The translations under genes and the position numbers were made by a program. The notes beneath the pieces are model-generated. The model worked only from the letters and a program-made list of their open reading frames with translations, had not been told where the DNA came from and ran no database searches. From IMG/VR virus record IMGVR_UViG_2875713109_000001: a stretch of 64,000 bases of DNA; one strand, written 5' to 3'. Origin of the DNA: a virus (taxonomy: Duplodnaviria > Heunggongvirae > Uroviricota > Caudoviricetes). This document shows positions 3,863 to 56,560 of the stretch, one piece after another; the stretch's first letter is position 1; each line of letters starts with the position of its first letter.

Positions 3863-3879
3863 CCTGCTCTAATAAATTT
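3863..3879 (+). promoter_or_regulatory. C1 repressor operator-like site upstream of immI
   Basis: cctgctctaataaattt, 15/17 match to ATTGCTCTAATAAATTT motif that recurs at more than 15 places in the window. Confidence 0.6.
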
Positions 3880-4066
3880 GTATTTTTAAGTCGCGAATGC
3901 TATCTTTTCGCATCATATTGACCTTTTAATCGTTCAGGCTTATAGTTTCGCCGTCGTAGCAAATTCTGCGACCAGGTTTGACAGCCTGAATGATTGTGCG
4001 GACAACCGCAGATTTCCGATATTGCGGTATTTTTGTGTCCGTTAAACCGCGTTACGCCCAAATTAT

Positions 4067-4143
4067 GGTGGGGCGTGATGGGGAGGCTTCGGCCTGCTGG
4101 TTTCACAATCGCCAGTCTGTCAACCCTGTCACGTCCTGCCACC
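4067..4143 (+). ncRNA. c4: c4-like antisense regulatory RNA (about 77 nt)
   Basis: Structured segment closed by ggtgg/ccacc with UUCG hairpin; internal cacaatc and caacc are complementary to gattgtg and ggttg found both upstream (3972-3999) and at the icd RBS (4146-4183), the a/b target layout expected for c4. Confidence 0.45.
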
Positions 4144-4193
4144 TGTTTGACAGCGGGTAGCAGGTTGTTAAACCTGATTGTGAGGCCGTAACT

Positions 4194-4415
4194 ATGGTTA
4201 ATGCCAATCCTTGCGCACGCCCAGAATTCATCTGGCGTTTCTATTCCTGTAAAAAACACCACTATCACTTCGTTATCGCAGCAACTGAAGACGAAGCACG
4301 CTCTCAATTGCCTGATGGCCCCTGCATTTTTACTGCCCGTTTTTCAACTAACTCGCGCAATTCACTTAGTTACTGGAGCCTCCCCTTCTCTGCCGACGTT
4401 CAGGGGGGTTTATGA
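4194..4415 (+). CDS. icd: Icd-like small protein (73 aa)
   Basis: 73-aa ORF directly upstream of and overlapping (ATGA) the antirepressor gene; paralog at 50988-51209. Confidence 0.65.
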   Translation: MVNANPCARPEFIWRFYSCKKHHYHFVIAATEDEARSQLPDGPCIFTARFSTNSRNSLSYWSLPFSADVQGGL

Positions 4416-5446
4416 AAACACCTCTCGTCACCCGTAATGAAATAGCCGAAGCGATCGCCTTGCATACTGCCTGTATGCCGACACGGGAGATCCCCGGCGC
4501 AATTGCTAACTATTTCATGATAACCAGACGTTTTTATACCCGAACAGATAAGGCTGTGATCAACAGGCTACTGATAGCCGAGATCAGGGATTATTTGATT
4601 GAACAAGGACGTCTACGTTACGCAACAGTGGCAGCAGAAATGAGAAAGGAGGCACATAGAATGACCGGTAATAATTTAAATGTTGAAAAACCAGCACCTG
4701 TTGCTTCAGCTACGCCAGCACCAGCCCTGAATGTCATCCCCAACACCGGAGACACAATCGACAGCCAAACATTGTTGAAGATGGTCAATGAGGCACGGAA
4801 ATTATGTAGCGAAAAACCAGTTCGCAACAATGATTTCATTGCCAGAGTTAAGGATGAGCTTGAAGGAGAAACCTACGAAATTTTCGTAGGTCAAAAAAAC
4901 GGCGCAGAAATAGATATTATAACCATGACCTACAAACAAGCCCTGCGAGTTGCCGCGCGCGAGTCAAAAGCGGTCCGCCGTTCGCTGATCGACAAACTGG
5001 AAGAATTGCAGCAGGCAAACTCCCCTACCCCATCGATCCCCCAAACATTACCAGAAGCTCTACGCCTGGCTGCCGAGTTGGCAGAACAGAAAATGCAGTT
5101 GGAACAACAGCTGGTGGCCGCAGCCCCTAAAGTCGATTTTGCCGACCGGGTATCAGTGGCCAATGGAATCCTGATCGGGAACTTTGCAAAGGTCGTTGGA
5201 CTTAAGCAAAACGCCCTTTTCTCATGGTTGCGCCAGAACGGCATTCTCATGGCTTTTGGTGCGCGCAAAAACGTACCGCGCCAACAGTACATCAACGCCG
5301 GGTATTTCACAGTGAAAGAAGTGGTGCTGGATGATGAAAATGGCTACCAGATACGGCTGACGCCCCAATTAACGGGTAAAGGCCAGCAGTGGTTAACTCG
5401 CAAGCTACTTGATGCTGGTTTGTTAAAACCAGTAGCAATAGGTTAA
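4412..5446 (+). CDS. ant: antirepressor Ant (Rha-like middle region, KilA-C-type C-terminal domain)
   Basis: 344 aa; C-terminal about 130 aa shared with KilA (5611-6411) and with the 371-aa paralog at 51206-52321; immI position after c4-like RNA and icd. Confidence 0.75.
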   Translation: MKTPLVTRNEIAEAIALHTACMPTREIPGAIANYFMITRRFYTRTDKAVINRLLIAEIRDYLIEQGRLRYATVAAEMRKEAHRMTGNNLNVEKPAPVASATPAPALNVIPNTGDTIDSQTLLKMVNEARKLCSEKPVRNNDFIARVKDELEGETYEIFVGQKNGAEIDIITMTYKQALRVAARESKAVRRSLIDKLEELQQANSPTPSIPQTLPEALRLAAELAEQKMQLEQQLVAAAPKVDFADRVSVANGILIGNFAKVVGLKQNALFSWLRQNGILMAFGARKNVPRQQYINAGYFTVKEVVLDDENGYQIRLTPQLTGKGQQWLTRKLLDAGLLKPVAIG

Positions 5447-24899: not shown

Positions 24900-24975
24900 G
24901 ATGGTGTAGCTCAGCGGTTAGAGCGGTTGACTGTTAATCAACGGGTCGATGGTTCAAATCCATCCACCATCGCCA
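24900..24975 (+). tRNA. tRNA-Asn (anticodon GUU)
   Basis: Cloverleaf folded by hand: acceptor gatggtg/caccatc, anticodon stem gttga/tcaac with loop ctGTTaa, T-arm gatgg-ttcaaat-ccatc, 3' CCA encoded. Confidence 0.85.
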
Positions 24976-24977
24976 AT

Positions 24978-25053
24978 GCCGGTTTAGCTCAGTTGGTAGA
25001 GCGCCTGCCTTGTAAGCAGGATGTCAGCGGTTCGAGTCCGTTAATCGGCACCA
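24978..25053 (+). tRNA. tRNA-Thr (anticodon UGU)
   Basis: Acceptor gccggtt/aatcggc, D-arm gctcagttggtagagc, anticodon stem cctgc/gcagg loop ctTGTaa, T-loop ttcgagt, CCA encoded. Confidence 0.85.
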
Positions 25054-26857: not shown

Positions 26858-26933
26858 GGCCCTTTAGCTCAGTGGTTAGAGCTGGCGACTCATAATCGCA
26901 CGGTCACCGGTTCAAGTCCGGTAGGGGCCACCA
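26858..26933 (+). tRNA. tRNA with CAU anticodon, Ile2 (ileX)-type
   Basis: Near-identical over most positions to recalled E. coli tRNA-Ile2; acceptor ggccctt/aggggcc, anticodon loop ctCATaa, CCA encoded. Confidence 0.8.
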
Positions 26934-47950: not shown

Positions 47951-49144
47951 GTGACCTGGGACGATCACAAGAAGAATTTTGCTCGCCTGGCGCGAGATGG
48001 TGGTTACACCATCGCACAGTATGCCGCCGAGTTTAATCTTAACCCTAATACCGCACGTCGTTATCTCCGTGCCTTCAAAGAAGACACCAGGACAGCGGAC
48101 AGCCGCAAGCCAAATAAGCCAGTCAGGAAGCCACTAAAAAGCATGATCATTGATCACTCTAATGATCAACATTCCGGTGATCACATTGCGGCTGAAATAG
48201 CAGAAAAACAAAGGGTTAATGCCATTGTCAGTGTCGCAGTCGAGAATGCGAAGCGCCAAAATAAGCGCATAAATGATCGTTCAGATGATCATGACGTGAT
48301 CACCCGCGCCCACCGGACCTTACGTGATCGCCTGGAACGCGACACCCTGGATGATGATGGTGAACGCTTTGAATTCGAAGCTGGCGATTACCTGATAGAT
48401 AACGTTGAAGCGCGGAAGGCCGCGCGCGCTATGTTGCGTCGGTCCGGGGCCGATGTTCTGGAAACCACTCTTCTTGAAAAGTCTCTTTCTCATCTCCTTA
48501 TGCTGGAGAACGCCAGGGATACGTGTATTCGCCTGGTGCAGGAAATGCGCGATCAGCAAAAAGCCGATGATGAAGGTACTCCGCCTGAATACCGTATCGC
48601 GAGCATGCTAAACAGCTGTTCCGCGCAGATAAGCAGTCTGATCAACACCATTTACAGCATCCGGAATAACTATCGAAAAGAAAGCCGGGAGGCGGAAAAG
48701 CACGCTTTGTCTATGGGGCAAGCTGGCATTGTTAAGCTGGCATACGAACGAAAGCGTGAAAATAACTGGTCAGTGCTGGAAGCAGCTGAATTTATCGAGG
48801 CGCATGGCGGGAAAGTGCCGCCCCTGATGCTGGAGCAAATCAAAGCCGATCTGCGTGCTCCTAAGACCAATACCGATGATGAGGAAAGGCAAACTGCCGT
48901 CGGTGGTCCTTCTCTTGAAGATCTGGACAAAGTTGCGCGAGAACGGGCCGCCAACCGCCGCGCCGATGCCGCATTGTGGATTGAGCAGCGTAGGGAAGAA
49001 ATCGCCGATATCGTTGATACAGGCGGTTATGGAGATGTTGATACTGAAGGTGTATCAAACGACCCATGGCTGGAACAAGACCTGGACGAAGACGAGGAGG
49101 AAGACGAAGAAGTTACCCGCAAGCTATACGGGGATGATGATTAA
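47951..49144 (+). CDS. pacA: PacA terminase small subunit (pac recognition)
   Basis: 397 aa as in P1 PacA; contains the pac hexanucleotide clusters; GTG start with AAAGGAAG SD. Confidence 0.85.
48144..48303. other. pac packaging site
   Basis: Four TGATCA hexamers (48144, 48151, 48163, 48178) and three TGATC(A/G) (48274, 48286, 48298) about 100 bp apart, the 4+3 Dam-site layout of P1 pac. Confidence 0.8.
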
Positions 49145-50628
49145 TGGCCAGAAGTTGCGTAACGGATCCACGTTGGCGCGAGCTGGTGGCGCTATATCGT
49201 TATGACTGGATTGCGGCCGCTGATGTTTTGTTCGGCAAAACACCTACCTGGCAGCAGGATCTGATTATTGAGTCTGTGCAGGAACAGGGTAGCAAGACAT
49301 CTGTTTCGTCTGGTCACGGTACCGGGAAATCAGACATGACTTCTATCATGATCATGTTGTTCATAATCATGTATCCCGGTGCCCGAGCCATTATCGTTGC
49401 GAACAAAATTCAGCAGGTAATGACCGGTATATTCAAGTACATCAAGATAAACTGGGCTACTGCCACCAGCCGTTTTCCATGGCTTGCTGATTATTTTGTT
49501 CTGACAGAAACCGCTTTCTATGAGGTTACTGGTAAAGGTGTATGGACTGTAGTACCGAAGGGCTTTCGTCTGGGAAGTGAAGAAGCTCTCGCCGGTGAAC
49601 ACGCAGATCATCTTCTGTATATTATCGATGAAGCCTCCGGTGTCAGTGATAGAGCTTTCGGTATCATCACCGGTGCTCTTACCGGACAGGATAACCGCAT
49701 CTTATTGCTGTCACAGCCTACACGCCCAAGCGGCTATTTCTACGATACACACCATAAACTGGCCAAGCGTCCTGGTAACCCTGATGGCGTTTATACGGCG
49801 ATCACGCTTAACAGTGAGGAATCACCGCTGGTAACGCCAGCATTTATCAAAATGAAGCTGGCGGAGTACGGCGGGCGTGATAACCCTATGTACATGATTA
49901 AGGTACGCGGGCTATTCCCTAAATCACAGGATGGCTTCCTTCTTGGACGTGATGAGGTTGAACGTGCAACGCGGCGGAAAGTCAAGATTGCCAAAGGATG
50001 GGGCTGGCTTGCATGTGTGGACGTTGCTGGTGGTACGGGAAGGGATAAGTCCGTTATCAATATCATGATGGTGTCCGGCCAGAGAAATAAACGCCGTGTA
50101 ATCAACTATCGAATGCTGGAATACACAGACGTTACAGAAACGCAGCTTGCCGCCAAAATTTTCGCAGAATGTAATCCTGAGCGATTCCCAAATATCACCA
50201 TAGCGATAGACGGCGATGGTCTGGGTAAAGCAACGGCGGATCTGATGTACGAGTATTATGGTATTACCGTACAGCGTATACGCTGGGGTAAAAAGATGCA
50301 TAGCCGTGAAGATAAGAGCCTGTACTTTGATAAACGTGCTTATGCCAACGTTCAAGCCGCAGAGGCCGTAAAATCTGGTCGTATGAGACTGGATAAGGGT
50401 AATGAAACTATTGAGGAAGCGTCGAAAATCCCTGTAGGGATTAACTCCGCAGGTCAATGGAAGGTGATGAGTAAGGAAGATATGAAGAAAAAACTCAACC
50501 TGCACTCACCGGACCATTGGGATACATATTGTTTCGCTATGTTGGCGAACTATGTTCCCCAAGATGAAGTGCTTAGCGTCGAAGACGAAGCGCAGGTTGA
50601 TGAAGCTCTGGCATGGCTTAATGAGTAA
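49144..50628 (+). CDS. pacB: PacB terminase large subunit
   Basis: 494 aa, ATG overlapping pacA stop; Walker A-like [10 protein letters not shown]. Confidence 0.85.
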
Positions 50629-50631
50629 AAA

Positions 50632-50648
50632 CTTGCTCTAATAAATTG
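50632..50648 (+). promoter_or_regulatory. C1 operator-like site upstream of second immI-like module
   Basis: cttgctctaataaattg. Confidence 0.6.
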
Positions 50649-50851
50649 TGTTTTTTGACTGCCGATGTTACATTGAACCTGACCTCTTGCGCCTTGAGGC
50701 ATTTTCGGTTTATGCTTATCAGGCACCTCATTAAAACGGGTGCCGGGATTGGAACCCCGGATAATGCAAAAGGCGACACAGACGCCAAAAGCGTCTTTTT
50801 TTGTGTCATGCCATCGCACAGCCATACGTAGCACATAGCTCCGAGATCAAT

Positions 50852-50926
50852 GGTAGTGCTGGCTGGGCTGCCGAAAGGCAGGCCGGTTCCCTTTTGCGCC
50901 GGTAGTTCCAACCCAGTCAGTGCTAC
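50852..50926 (+). ncRNA. second c4-like structured RNA (tentative)
   Basis: About 75 nt closed by ggtag/ctacc with GAAA-loop hairpin ctgcc-gaaa-ggcag; same position relative to the icd-like gene as 4067-4143. Confidence 0.3.
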
Positions 50927-50987
50927 CGCCATTGAGATTGGAACCTCACGCGGTAGCTCCTTAAGTTAGCAAAAGGAGGCTGCCATT

Positions 50988-51209
50988 GTGGCTACTATCC
51001 CTACCCCTGCTCATCCTGAATTTATCTGGCGCTTTTACTCCTGCCAAAAACGTCACTATCACTTCGTTATTGCACCGACAGAAGATGAGGCACGTTCTCA
51101 GCTTCCTGACGCCCCATGTATTTTCTCTGCCCGTTTTTCCACTGATTCACGCAATTCTCTCAGTTACTGGTGCCTCCCTGTTAACGCTTCTGCTCTGGAG
51201 GGGCTATGA
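50988..51209 (+). CDS. Icd-like small protein, second copy
   Basis: 73 aa, about 70% identical to 4194-4415 product; GTG start 8 nt after AAAAGGAGG. Confidence 0.6.
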   Translation: MATIPTPAHPEFIWRFYSCQKRHYHFVIAPTEDEARSQLPDAPCIFSARFSTDSRNSLSYWCLPVNASALEGL

Positions 51210-52321
51210 GAACATCATTAGTCACCCGTAAAGAAATGATCGAGGCAATTGAACAGCACACTGCCTGTATCAGTACCAGGGATATACCTGGCGTTATTGC
51301 CAACTACTTCATGATCACCAAACAACTTTACCGGAGAAAGGACAAAAACGCGGTTCACCGCATTCTGCTAACCGATATCCGTGAATACCTGCTCGAACAG
51401 GGTCATCTGAATTACGCAACCGTCGCAGCCGAAGCACGCAAGGAGGCACACAGAATGAAAGCAACTAACGTTAAATCAGAAAAAACTCATGCACCTTCAG
51501 TTCAGGAATCGGAGCTGGTGGTTGTTCAGAATCAGTCTGATGAAATTCCCGTTCTGGAATGGCTGGGAGTGCGTGTAGTGACAACTAAGATCCTTGCTAA
51601 GGGGTATGGGACAGATGCGGATAACATCAAGAAGAACTTTTCCCGTAATGCTGAACGTTTTTGTGAAGGCAAGCATTTCTATAAAGTTATTGGAGATGAT
51701 TTGAACAATTTGCGGGTGACTTTAAGTAACTCACAAAATCCTATCTCTCCTAAAGCCCGCTCACTCATCCTCTGGACGGAACGCGGCGCAGCCCGCCACG
51801 CTAAAATGATCGAAACCGATCAGGCATGGGCATTCTTTGAAAAACTGGAAGACAGCTACTTCCGACAAAAAGAACAGCAACCGATCGCAATCCCCCAGAC
51901 GCTTCCAGAAGCTCTGCGCCTTGCTGCCGAACTGGCTGAACAAAAGCAACTTCTGGAACAGAAAGCCCATCAGCTAAATCAGCAGCTGGTGGCCGCAGCC
52001 CCCAAAGTCGATTTTGCCGACCGGGTATCAGTGGCTAAGGGGATCCTGATTGGGAATTTTGCAAAGGTCGTTGGACTTAAACAAAATGCGCTGTTTGCCT
52101 GGTTACGGGAGAACGGCATTCTGATAGCGTCCGGCGGCCGTAAAAATGTACCGTTCCAGCAGTACATAAACGCCGGATATTTCACAGTGAAAGAAGTGGT
52201 GCTGGATGATGAAGAGGGCTACCAGATACGGCTGACGCCCCAATTAACGGGGAAAGGCCAACAGTGGTTGACGCGTAAACTGCTCGATGCTGGCTTGTTA
52301 AAACCGGTGGCGGCTGAATAA
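51206..52321 (+). CDS. antirepressor-like protein, second copy (ORF6N-like middle domain, KilA-C C-terminus)
   Basis: 371 aa; N- and C-terminal regions homologous to Ant, different central domain; ATG overlaps icd-like stop. Confidence 0.7.
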   Translation: MRTSLVTRKEMIEAIEQHTACISTRDIPGVIANYFMITKQLYRRKDKNAVHRILLTDIREYLLEQGHLNYATVAAEARKEAHRMKATNVKSEKTHAPSVQESELVVVQNQSDEIPVLEWLGVRVVTTKILAKGYGTDADNIKKNFSRNAERFCEGKHFYKVIGDDLNNLRVTLSNSQNPISPKARSLILWTERGAARHAKMIETDQAWAFFEKLEDSYFRQKEQQPIAIPQTLPEALRLAAELAEQKQLLEQKAHQLNQQLVAAAPKVDFADRVSVAKGILIGNFAKVVGLKQNALFAWLRENGILIASGGRKNVPFQQYINAGYFTVKEVVLDDEEGYQIRLTPQLTGKGQQWLTRKLLDAGLLKPVAAE

Positions 52322-52328
52322 TGGAAGA

Positions 52329-52350
52329 ATGCCCGGTTGATGCCGGGCAT
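52329..52350. terminator. bidirectional terminator-like hairpin between convergent ant-like and c1
   Basis: atgcccgg-ttgatg-ccgggcat. Confidence 0.45.
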
Positions 52351-52353
52351 AAT

Positions 52354-53205
52354 TTATTGCGCGCTTTCGGGGTTGTCGTTTACTGGCTGCCCCTTCTTGG
52401 TTTTACGGCTGCGCGTAACTGATGCGGCTGACTTAACCTTTTTCTCTTCGCGAGTGATGGCAATTTGTTTTTTTACATTTTCAATATCTGCCAGGCGATA
52501 TATTTTTGCTTGTGGCCAGCGGTCGCAGATGATCGGTTCTATGGAGTCATAAAGGCTAAATTTTGCTTTTTCGAATTCACCGTTGATGATGATTCCATCA
52601 CGGAGAGTTTCATCGCAGATAAACACGCCACACAGCGGTACATGGTAACTAACTGATTTACCATCATTGTAGTTAGGGCTACTGGAGATGTAGTGGACGC
52701 GCAGCATTGTTTCGCTAAAGCCGTGTACACGCATACGGAATTTTTCATCCTCCGGGTACTGCCTCATTAGCTCTTTTGTTGCTTCCAGGTTCTCTATGTA
52801 TTTCGCACTGTGCTCATTGATCCCCGCGCTTTTTTGGATGCGAATGTCCTTATCAATCAGATGAATAATGCGGCCAGCGGTCATGTTGACGCTGTTCACA
52901 GCTTCTGTCTGATAAGTTGTAACCTTGCGCACACCGCGAAGGATGTTAGGCACTGGATATAAAATAGTCTTTGGGATATTGAGGTCTGGGTACTGTTCCA
53001 GTTCCCGCGCCATTAAAGTCCATTTATCAATTTCAGCCTGAATGCTGTCAGTTTCTTTGAACGGTAGAACGACAACCGGGCGTACAGGACGACCGTCGCT
53101 GGCTGTATCAACGTGTTGGGCGCGTGCAACAGCTTTTTTTAGAAAGAGATCCCTGAAGCTGACGAACTCCTGGTACAGTTGTTCGCCGTAGACATAATTT
53201 ATCAT
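52354..53205 (-). CDS. c1: C1 master repressor
   Basis: 283 aa as in P1 C1; GGAGGAGG SD; genome carries many copies of its operator motif. Confidence 0.9.
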   Translation of the reverse strand: MINYVYGEQLYQEFVSFRDLFLKKAVARAQHVDTASDGRPVRPVVVLPFKETDSIQAEIDKWTLMARELEQYPDLNIPKTILYPVPNILRGVRKVTTYQTEAVNSVNMTAGRIIHLIDKDIRIQKSAGINEHSAKYIENLEATKELMRQYPEDEKFRMRVHGFSETMLRVHYISSSPNYNDGKSVSYHVPLCGVFICDETLRDGIIINGEFEKAKFSLYDSIEPIICDRWPQAKIYRLADIENVKKQIAITREEKKVKSAASVTRSRKTKKGQPVNDNPESAQ

Positions 53206-55913: not shown

Positions 55914-55999
55914 GCAGTTTTTGTCAACTACGAAGACGTTGCCATTACTTCACTCCTTGACATCATAGGCGGCCATTAGGCCGCCTTTTTTTTGACCAT

Positions 56000-56560
56000 A
56001 TGAAAACAATCGAACAAAAAATTGAACAGTGCCGCAAGTGGCAGAAGGCAGCCAGAGAACGAGCGATCGCTCGGCAACGGGAGAAGTTGGCTGATCCGGT
56101 CTGGCGAGAATCTCAATATCAGAAAATGCGGAATACTATCGATCGCCGTATCGCTAAACAGAAAGAGCGCCCACCAGCCAGCAAAACGCGGAAAAGCGCG
56201 GTAAAAATAAAATCTCGTGACTTGAAGGGACGAACACCGACGGCGGAGGAACGGCGCATAGCCAATGCTCTTGGCGCTCTCCCCTGCATTGCCTGCTATA
56301 TGCATGAAGTAATATCTGAAGAGGTGTCTCTGCACCATATCTCCGGTCGTACCGCGCCTGGTTGTCACAAAAAGCAATTGCCACTTTGTAGATGGCACCA
56401 CCAGCATGCAGCACCGGCTGAAGTAAGAGAAAAATACCCCTGGCTGGTCCCTGTTCATGCCGATGGTGTGGTTGGAGGCAAGAAAGAATTCACCTTGCTG
56501 AACAAGTCAGAGATGGAGTTGCTGGCTGACGCCTATGAAATGGCAAACATCATGCACTAA
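56000..56560 (+). CDS. ref: Ref recombination enhancement protein (HNH nuclease)
   Basis: 186 aa as in P1 Ref; Cys/His-rich HNH-like core CIACYMHE...HHISGRTAPGCHKK...CRWHHQH. Confidence 0.85.
   Translation: MKTIEQKIEQCRKWQKAARERAIARQREKLADPVWRESQYQKMRNTIDRRIAKQKERPPASKTRKSAVKIKSRDLKGRTPTAEERRIANALGALPCIACYMHEVISEEVSLHHISGRTAPGCHKKQLPLCRWHHQHAAPAEVREKYPWLVPVHADGVVGGKKEFTLLNKSEMELLADAYEMANIMH

Follow-up and report, generated by a model that had tools for sequence, protein, structure and literature searches.

We analysed a 64,000-nucleotide (nt) stretch of DNA of a P1-like phage-plasmid (IMG/VR record IMGVR_UViG_2875713109_000001; hereafter the window), in which pacB (49144-50628, plus strand) and c1 (52354-53205, minus strand, with its stop-codon end at 52354) converge. 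In reference P1 (NC_005856) the stop codons of the two genes are 24 base pairs (bp) apart; in the window they are separated by 1,725 bp (50629-52353). An earlier sequence-only reading had taken this additional segment for a second module of the immI type, inserted between pacB and c1 and missing at this position in P1, with a C1 operator of its own, a structured RNA, an Icd paralogue and an antirepressor. Comparison with annotated sequences bore out this outline: the parts and their order equal those of annotated P1 immI, and the segment was absent from the pacB-c1 junction of both P1 and P7 and, by the same sequence comparison, from SJ46 and several further sequenced relatives. The features of the segment, referred to below as the cassette, and those of the canonical module in the same genome are as follows, with protein-coding frames taken from the list of open reading frames (ORFs).

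50632-50648, plus strand: C1-operator-like site CTTGCTCTAATAAATTG
50646-50674, plus strand: predicted promoter equivalent to P1 P2c4 (formerly P51a), -35 TTGTGT, 17-nt spacer, -10 TACATT
50688-50716, plus strand: predicted promoter equivalent to P1 P1c4 (formerly P51b), -35 TTGCGC, 17-nt spacer, -10 TATGCT
50723-50801, plus strand: IsrK/a1b1-type leader RNA, comprising hairpin 1, hairpin 2, b1 and an intrinsic terminator
50749-50755, plus strand: a1, TTGGAAC, in the loop of leader hairpin 2
50766-50773, plus strand: b1, GCAAAAGG, in the leader
50780-50796, plus strand: stem of the leader intrinsic terminator, followed by a T-run
50846-50933, plus strand: C4-family antisense RNA
50852-50930, plus strand: predicted mature C4-2 RNA, about 79 nt
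50890-50897, plus strand: b', CCTTTTGC, in the loop of C4 hairpin 2
50905-50911, plus strand: a', GTTCCAA, in the single-stranded junction of the folded C4
50938-50944, plus strand: a2, TTGGAAC, target site in the icd-ant mRNA leader
50969-50976, plus strand: b2, GCAAAAGG, target site in the icd-ant mRNA leader
50988-51209, plus strand: icd-like gene, 73 amino acids, GTG start
51206-52321, plus strand: Ant1-like antirepressor gene, 371 amino acids, with ends like those of P1 Ant
51455-52321, plus strand: nested Ant2-like frame from Met84, with AAGGAGG (51440-51446) 8 nt upstream
52329-52350, plus strand: end hairpin ATGCCCGGTTGATGCCGGGCAT, then AATTTATT, from the terminator scan, 3 nt before the c1 stop codon
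3863-5446, plus strand: canonical immI module, with operator (3863-3879), a1b1 leader (3940-3992), C4 (4061-4146), icd (4194-4415) and ant1 (4412-5446)

The junctions of the cassette fall exactly at the stop codons of pacB and c1. At its flanks we found no terminal inverted repeats or target-site duplication beyond short matches of chance length, and the ORF list holds no transposase within it, so that the segment does not qualify as a transposon or insertion sequence. A candidate remnant of the cassette in the 24-bp P1 spacer was rejected, the match of only 7 nt (ATGCCGG) being too short. From operator to terminator the extra segment is, to judge by its parts, a self-contained immI-type cassette. 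It shares with the P1/P7 immI not only the order of these parts but also their overlaps, i.e. the operator on the -35 element, b2 on the icd Shine-Dalgarno sequence, the icd stop on the ant start, and the conserved Met84; its RNAs are of the same family, its Icd is a close relative and its Ant has closely similar N and C termini. It differs in location (pacB-c1, as compared with sim-kilA for the canonical module), in its recognition elements (listed below), in a leader that scores as isrK and not as c4-a1b1, in the GTG start of icd, and in the ORF6N middle of Ant.

The operator-like site departs from the consensus ATTGCTCTAATAAATTT at two positions, both at its ends. Sites with three or fewer mismatches number 15 in the window, against 0.4 expected from shuffles, and the cassette site is kept in the IMG/VR loci that bear the cassette. 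It overlaps the -35 element of the first predicted promoter by 3 nt, like Oc4/Op51 relative to P2c4 in annotated P1; at the level of sequence, then, the cassette has a putative C1 operator lying over its upstream promoter, as immI does. The P2c4-equivalent promoter was placed by position against annotated P1 (TTGTAT/17/TATCTT). For the P1c4-equivalent promoter, the -10 element aligns with P1 TATAGT in a MAFFT alignment, D6 module B carries TTGCGC/18/TATATT at the same place, and the predicted start near 50723 coincides with position 1 of the isrK model match. Both promoters are presumably used as their P1 counterparts are.

The leader RNA at 50723-50801, overlooked in the sequence-only reading, matches the Rfam isrK model (RF01394) with 62.4 bits (gathering score 50) over model positions 1-77; the c4-a1b1 model (RF03163) gave 23.1 bits on 50710-50763, below its gathering threshold of 46.7. 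The canonical P1-type leader, which also comprises a hairpin followed by a U-run, scored 55.2 bits with c4-a1b1 and 43 bits with isrK. Since the two models span the identical two hairpins, the cassette leader is, on this evidence, an RNA of the same kind as the canonical leader, yet falls under the isrK model. Its terminator was also found by an independent terminator scan.

The RNA encoded downstream of the leader matches the Rfam C4 model (RF01695) with 76.7 bits (gathering score 45) and thereby outscores the canonical C4 at 4061-4146 (68.4 bits). The minimum-free-energy fold of C4-2 (-46.6 kcal/mol) agrees with the family architecture and displays an acceptor-like stem with an unpaired 3' GCC(A) tail. 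When nine C4 sequences of phage-plasmid and bacterial chromosomal origin were aligned, they proved to have a common fold, in which 15 of 28 pairs showed compensatory changes. The structured RNA proposed at first for this position is thus a member of the C4 family, but by alignment to P1 c4 its mature form would measure about 79 nt and not the 75 nt assigned to it.

Annotated P1 marks a1, b1, a2 and b2 as elements for C4, and we extracted the corresponding elements from seven modules:

P1 module: a = TTGACAG, b = GTTAGTG
P7 module: a = TTAGCAG, b = GATTGTG
Window, canonical module: a = TTGACAG, b = GATTGTG
Window, cassette: a = TTGGAAC, b = GCAAAAGG
RCS47, cassette: a = TTGAGAC, b = GTCAAAGG
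D6, module B: a = TTGAGAC, b = GCAAAAGG
D6, module A: a = TTGACAG, b = ACTTACG

In all seven, the copies on either side of the RNA agree with each other and with the reverse complement of the element inside it. For the cassette the agreement is exact over 7 nt (a1 = a2 = reverse complement of a') and 8 nt (b1 = b2 = reverse complement of b'), and the order and spacing of a2 and b2 equal those in annotated P1. Within GCAAAAGGAGG, b2 overlaps the icd Shine-Dalgarno sequence AGGAGG (50974-50979), which lies 8 nt ahead of the GTG at 50988. Cassette and canonical module of the same genome differ at three of seven positions in a and at six of eight in b; P1 and P7, heteroimmune in experiments, differ at two positions in each element. 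Summed energies of short duplexes, a crude measure that ignores intramolecular structure, came to about -21 kcal/mol for cognate and about -11 kcal/mol for non-cognate pairs of C4 and target. Because the element differences exceed those between P1 and P7, and given these energies, the two modules are expected not to cross-repress. The proposal that the cassette could change immunity specificity thus gained computational support: the C4-2 elements would fit their own target sites exactly and miss those of the canonical module.

The canonical module (3940-4200) proved to be a P1/P7 hybrid, with a as in P1 and b as in P7, matched throughout a1/a2/a' and b1/b2/b'. Judged by P1/P7 heteroimmunity, full repression of this module might be beyond both the P1 and the P7 C4.

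Turning to the proteins, the Icd of the cassette is 79% identical to canonical Icd and matches phrog_1426 (E = 6e-45). The TGA stop codon of icd overlaps the ATG of ant (ATGA, 51206-51209). The cassette Ant matches phrog_63, 'anti-repressor Ant' (E = 1e-133). BLASTP against Ant1 gave 55% identity overall, the first 84 and the last ∼145 residues aligning well and the middle not, which agrees with the initial description of an antirepressor with Ant-like termini and a different, ORF6N-like middle. Pfam assigned residues 117-201 to ORF6N (PF10543; E = 4e-18, 65.9 bits, cut-off 27.8) and residues 259-360 to ANT/KilAC (PF03374; 107.7 bits, cut-off 25.3). The middle of canonical Ant1 had been called Rha-like; this label found no support, as Pfam returned no match for that region, nor for the shared N-terminal 83 residues, even at E values up to 10.

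Annotated P1 ant2 starts at codon 84 of ant1, and the same Met codon with the same Shine-Dalgarno sequence is present in both the cassette and the canonical copy. This internal start, at 51455 in the cassette, had likewise escaped the sequence-only reading; we infer that it is used to produce an Ant2-like protein. At its 3' end ant converges on c1 (52321-52356), with only the 22-bp hairpin and a weak T-run between them. An identical hairpin closes the cassette at other genomic sites too (loci L082, L051, L041 and L034). Speculatively, read-through on derepression would yield RNA antisense to c1.

One reading of the ORF6N domain is that the second antirepressor targets the repressors of other resident prophages, or has some other ORF6N function, and does not act on P1 C1, which would make the cassette a means of attacking or sensing unrelated elements in the same cell. 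This middle third has no detectable similarity to P1 Ant1. Furthermore, the RNA-icd part and the ant part of such modules recombine separately, because in D6 module B RNAs with 93% identity to those of the cassette are joined to a gene for a different Ant. We nevertheless regard this reading as unlikely: over its first 84 and last ∼145 residues the protein closely resembles P1 Ant1, the internal Ant2-type start is conserved, a predicted C1 operator is present, and the cassette is almost confined to P1-like plasmids that encode C1 (1,412 of 1,437 cassette places in Escherichia coli genomes were plasmid-borne). In addition, phrog_1726 aligns to the middle region of both the cassette Ant and canonical Ant1, and the two middles may thus be remote homologues.

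In P1, C4 RNA is processed by RNase P and represses Ant synthesis, while Ant1 and Ant2 antagonize C1 by binding and inactivating it; expression of icd and ant is coupled, and P1/P7 heteroimmunity rests on small differences in a and b. C4 repression of Ant, the antagonism of Ant and C1, and P1/P7 heteroimmunity reportedly go back to work by Citron and Schuster in 1990 and 1992 and by Heinrich and colleagues in 1994 and 1995, all cited in the reference list of PMC8546580. From the part-for-part homology with P1 immI and the joint variation of the recognition elements, we consider it probable that the cassette functions as the P1/P7 immI operon does but obeys an RNA of another specificity. Transcription would start from the two promoters, the upstream one being overlapped by the C1 operator. 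The terminator of the IsrK-type leader would stop part of this transcription, and the remainder would read into the C4-like RNA, icd and ant. Once excised from the transcript, the C4-like RNA would expose a' (GUUCCAA) and b' (CCUUUUGC) for pairing with a2 and b2, which would cover the icd ribosome-binding site; with icd untranslated, the overlapping ant frames would stay silent. Where a matching C4 is missing or outnumbered, Icd and the Ant1/Ant2-like proteins would be made, and the antirepressor would inactivate the repressor, presumably C1. This scheme takes the processing of C4, the coupling of translation and the target of the protein from P1 by homology, and the ecological role likewise.

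Several points weigh against it. The putative C1 operator has two deviations from the consensus. Both promoters match weakly, and a strict consensus scan called neither of them. The leader terminator might halt most transcription before C4. The duplex energies are crude, being computed on short segments and ignoring intramolecular structure. The middle of the cassette Ant is unrelated in sequence to that of P1 Ant1, so that its target might not be C1. Lastly, the literature searched contains no experiments on this module.

If the immI-like mechanism is true, a prophage would silence incoming relatives only when it recognizes all their ant modules, because the cassette and the canonical module of one genome carry different elements. 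As an invader, a carrier of the cassette would escape residents that lack either matching RNA.

The isrK match of the leader brings in a second system, isrK-orf45(STnc1160)-anrP of the Salmonella prophage Gifsy-1, which resembles the cassette in having an IsrK-family leader, a terminator that is partly read through, a stable RNA and an antirepressor. It differs in that no icd lies between the RNA and the antirepressor, there is no C1 operator, and the output is activation of antQ. In Gifsy-1, translation of anrP rises 139-fold when IsrK is supplied in trans, and no phage is produced spontaneously once the isrK promoter has been deleted (Hershko-Shalev et al., 2016; PMC4825925). Transcription reads through the IsrK terminator, and the interval from isrK to anrP holds a stable, processed RNA (STnc1160) with complementarity to IsrK; translation of the antirepressor depends on an upstream small ORF (PMC4825925). 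The activating mutations, IsrK G28 and G31, are compensated downstream at C162 and C159, and the authors' model invokes alternative mRNA structures opened by IsrK, with no C4-type repressor RNA (PMC4825925). Hfq binding and trans activation of antirepressor translation by IsrK are known only for Salmonella Gifsy-1 (PMC4825925).

By analogy with Gifsy-1, the cassette could be an induction switch, in which the short leader RNA builds up under certain host conditions, binds the C4-like RNA or the long transcript and frees icd/ant translation, its main role being internal prophage induction and not superinfection specificity. The leader exceeds the curated threshold for isrK and ends in a strong intrinsic terminator, and a1 with its flanks forms a 15-nt stretch that is 80% complementary to the a' region. 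The Gifsy-1 results point the same way, i.e. activation of anrP by IsrK in trans, the complementarity of STnc1160, and the need for the isrK promoter in spontaneous phage production, as do tandem matches of isrK and C4 in five chromosomal loci of different genera (see below). However, the canonical P1 leader is laid out alike (its isrK score is given above), so that this layout is no peculiarity of the cassette, and the established role of the P1 module is immunity. Moreover, diverse alleles whose parts vary strictly together would be expected under selection for phage-to-phage specificity, whereas an internal switch needs none, and STnc1160 is only a presumed homologue of C4. The induction switch is compatible with the immI-like mechanism and differs from it in purpose; as the main role of the cassette we hold it to be possible but doubtful.

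The same comparison bears on what IsrK is. Positions 26-31 of the Rfam isrK consensus form the loop that corresponds to a1. From this match and the Gifsy-1 results, IsrK would be the a1/b1 leader of a C4-type module, and a short terminated leader could act as a decoy for its own C4; STnc1160 would then be the C4 homologue. A pattern scan of genome contigs with GTGCCGGGATTGNNNNCCCG, which is no census, returned among the matches listed mostly chance hits in unrelated organisms and at least five useful loci (four enterobacterial, one Vibrio). In at least five chromosomal loci an Rfam isrK match is followed ∼25-50 nt on by a C4 match on the same strand:

L152:1613-1799, tandem isrK-C4 locus
L101:6660-6850, tandem isrK-C4 locus
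L160:3236-3424, tandem isrK-C4 locus
L161:1834-2049, tandem isrK-C4 locus
L142:6176-6366, tandem isrK-C4 locus

The organisms are Klebsiella pneumoniae, Brenneria, Shigella flexneri, Atlantibacter and Vibrio albus. These tandem loci, together with the cross-scoring of the isrK and c4-a1b1 models, suggest that the Rfam isrK family represents leaders of C4-type modules and should be placed with clan CL00128.

The immunity region of P4 (seqA - CI RNA - seqC) is a more distant likeness, in which the genes downstream are controlled by a small processed RNA that has a copy of its target sequence on either side. That RNA acts by terminating transcription of the P4 replication genes prematurely, in a system without an antirepressor. 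The IsrK authors cited P4 immunity as a structural analogue (PMC4825925).

The sequence-only reading had implied that a module at this position is rare, which is contradicted by its distribution. The contiguous arrangement pacB-cassette-c1 occurs in phages RCS47 (95.5% identity), JL22 and vB_EcoM-673R5, and in 283 of 803 matching PLSDB records. It was present in 268 records (265 of 5,426 complete E. coli genomes), almost always plasmids. Of 60 rows sampled at even spacing from the E. coli ranking, 20 had the filled junction and 16 the empty, P1-like one; on this ratio, the state of reference P1 is no commoner than the filled one.

For a survey of alleles we searched IMG/VR with the cassette Ant protein and obtained 79 loci. 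Those at pacB-c1 included four allele combinations, {TTGAGAC, TTGGAAC} × {GCAAAAGG, GTCAAAGG}, counted 13, 7, 6 and 3 times with both flanks present, plus one locus with the pacB flank only; the three-way match was perfect in all. Another 20 loci form a fifth class, in which leader and C4 are different (Rfam C4, 75.9 bits; isrK, 60.8 bits) and the targets pair through one G-U wobble each. There are thus five specificity classes at pacB-c1, in which leader, RNA and target sites change together, in the fifth via G-U pairs.

The reading frame of icd was intact in all 47 surveyed pacB-c1 loci and Ant was full length in 44 of them, and the ratio of non-synonymous to synonymous substitution rates (dN/dS) of ant, relative to the window copy, was 0.03-0.18. 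Hence the cassette is under purifying selection, as would not be expected of a decaying duplicate. Decay of an immI duplicate into a non-functional copy would fit the ∼86% DNA identity with the 3' part of canonical ant, as a duplication would leave it, and the truncation of Ant in 3 of the 47 loci; with intact frames, low dN/dS, recognition elements that co-vary and match three ways in every allele, a fold upheld by covariation, a C4 score above that of the canonical copy, and presence in hundreds of plasmids, we consider it very improbable.

The unit from operator to hairpin is not tied to pacB-c1. In related IMG/VR contigs it replaces window positions 55991-56552, which here hold a 186-codon ORF (56000-56560) that the cassette replaced in one case, and it also lies between the equivalents of 57392 and 62476 and between those of 29575 and 29633. 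The cassettes at other sites (loci L021, L041, L034, L082, L051 and L073) have P1-type leaders and the b alleles GTACATG, ACTTACG and ACGAATG, and one contig, IMGVR_UViG_648276648_000009, carries two cassettes ∼7 kb apart. These positions fit a cassette that moves by recombination. Within the window, the 3' parts of the two ant genes (51971-52305 and 5036-5436) have ∼86% DNA identity, in direct orientation and ∼47 kb apart, and could serve as a substrate for recombination between the two modules.

A filled pacB-c1 junction could also be the ancestral state, from which laboratory P1 and P7 lost the cassette, and to speak of an insertion would then be wrong; this concerns its origin and not its function. 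In favour of this, filled junctions are no rarer than empty ones in the E. coli records and sampled rows given above, and PLSDB is similar. On the other side, the operator-to-terminator unit occupies three or more other sites in related genomes, which fits a mobile cassette, and the 24-bp P1 spacer has no clear cassette remnant. We give ancestral presence a minor share of the probability.

Taken further, the data would accommodate a multi-locus, combinatorial RNA 'immunity barcode' in P1-like phage-plasmids, an idea we put forward tentatively and think less likely than not to hold in full. It would consist of mobile immI cassettes at four or more intergenic sites with many a/b alleles (the five classes at pacB-c1 and at least six combinations among P1-type leaders), two or three mutually non-recognizing cassettes being stacked under superinfection conflict. 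The IsrK-type leader would be a decoy titrating its own C4, and Salmonella IsrK-AnrP would be re-explained as C4-type.

Among sequenced relatives, RCS47 (NC_042128), pTZ20_1P (MN510447), JL22, vB_EcoM-673R5 and many IncY plasmids have the cassette at the same site with the same gene content and 92-99% DNA identity. The RCS47 copy differs in both elements (TTGAGAC and GTCAAAGG, as compared with TTGGAAC and GCAAAAGG in the window). D6 likewise has two icd-ant modules: module B (record 74.0-75.5 kb) shares leader, C4 and the start of icd with the window cassette at 93% identity, and the other module is P1-type. The D6 modules differ in adjoining ref and repL and in encoding different, shorter Ant proteins.

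Public annotation of the cassette relatives covers proteins only and leaves the RNA layer unannotated; RefSeq names the proteins 'host cell division inhibitor Icd-like' and 'phage antirepressor KilAC domain-containing'. Venturini et al. (2019; PMC6906374) mention the cassette genes, as an ant insertion, with RCS47. In the literature searched, whose coverage excludes most subscription journals and with them the D6 genome paper, we found no description of the RNA layer, the specificity alleles, the population diversity or experiments. The cassette is a real variant of a known system, not a system of a new kind, and its sequence is already public; its analysis as an RNA-controlled module with its own specificity appears to be new.

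P1 immunity is usually taught from two laboratory phages with one immI module each. Two or more modules are present here and in about one-third of the E. coli records that match the region. If the immI-like mechanism is true, the meeting of two P1-like plasmids (exclusion, co-residence, induction) would be set by a pair of RNA specificities and not by one. This is relevant to the spread of resistance genes on many such plasmids, and to P1 derivatives as delivery vehicles in natural isolates. The five natural specificity classes at one site, with few nucleotide differences per element, offer a direct test bed.

Two minor observations concern annotation. In the RefSeq annotation of near-identical plasmids, an 'ash family protein' gene of 39 codons coincides exactly with the C4-like RNA (window 50850-50969). 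We rejected this ORF as a real gene: the frame has 14 codons in P1 and continues into icd in locus L011. Probably an RNA gene has here been mistaken for a coding sequence, and the PHROG 'transcriptional repressor' families that match the ash ORF probably do so for that reason. Elsewhere in the window, Rfam identified three tRNA genes (24900-24972, 24978-25050 and 26858-26930), as expected for a P1-type genome.

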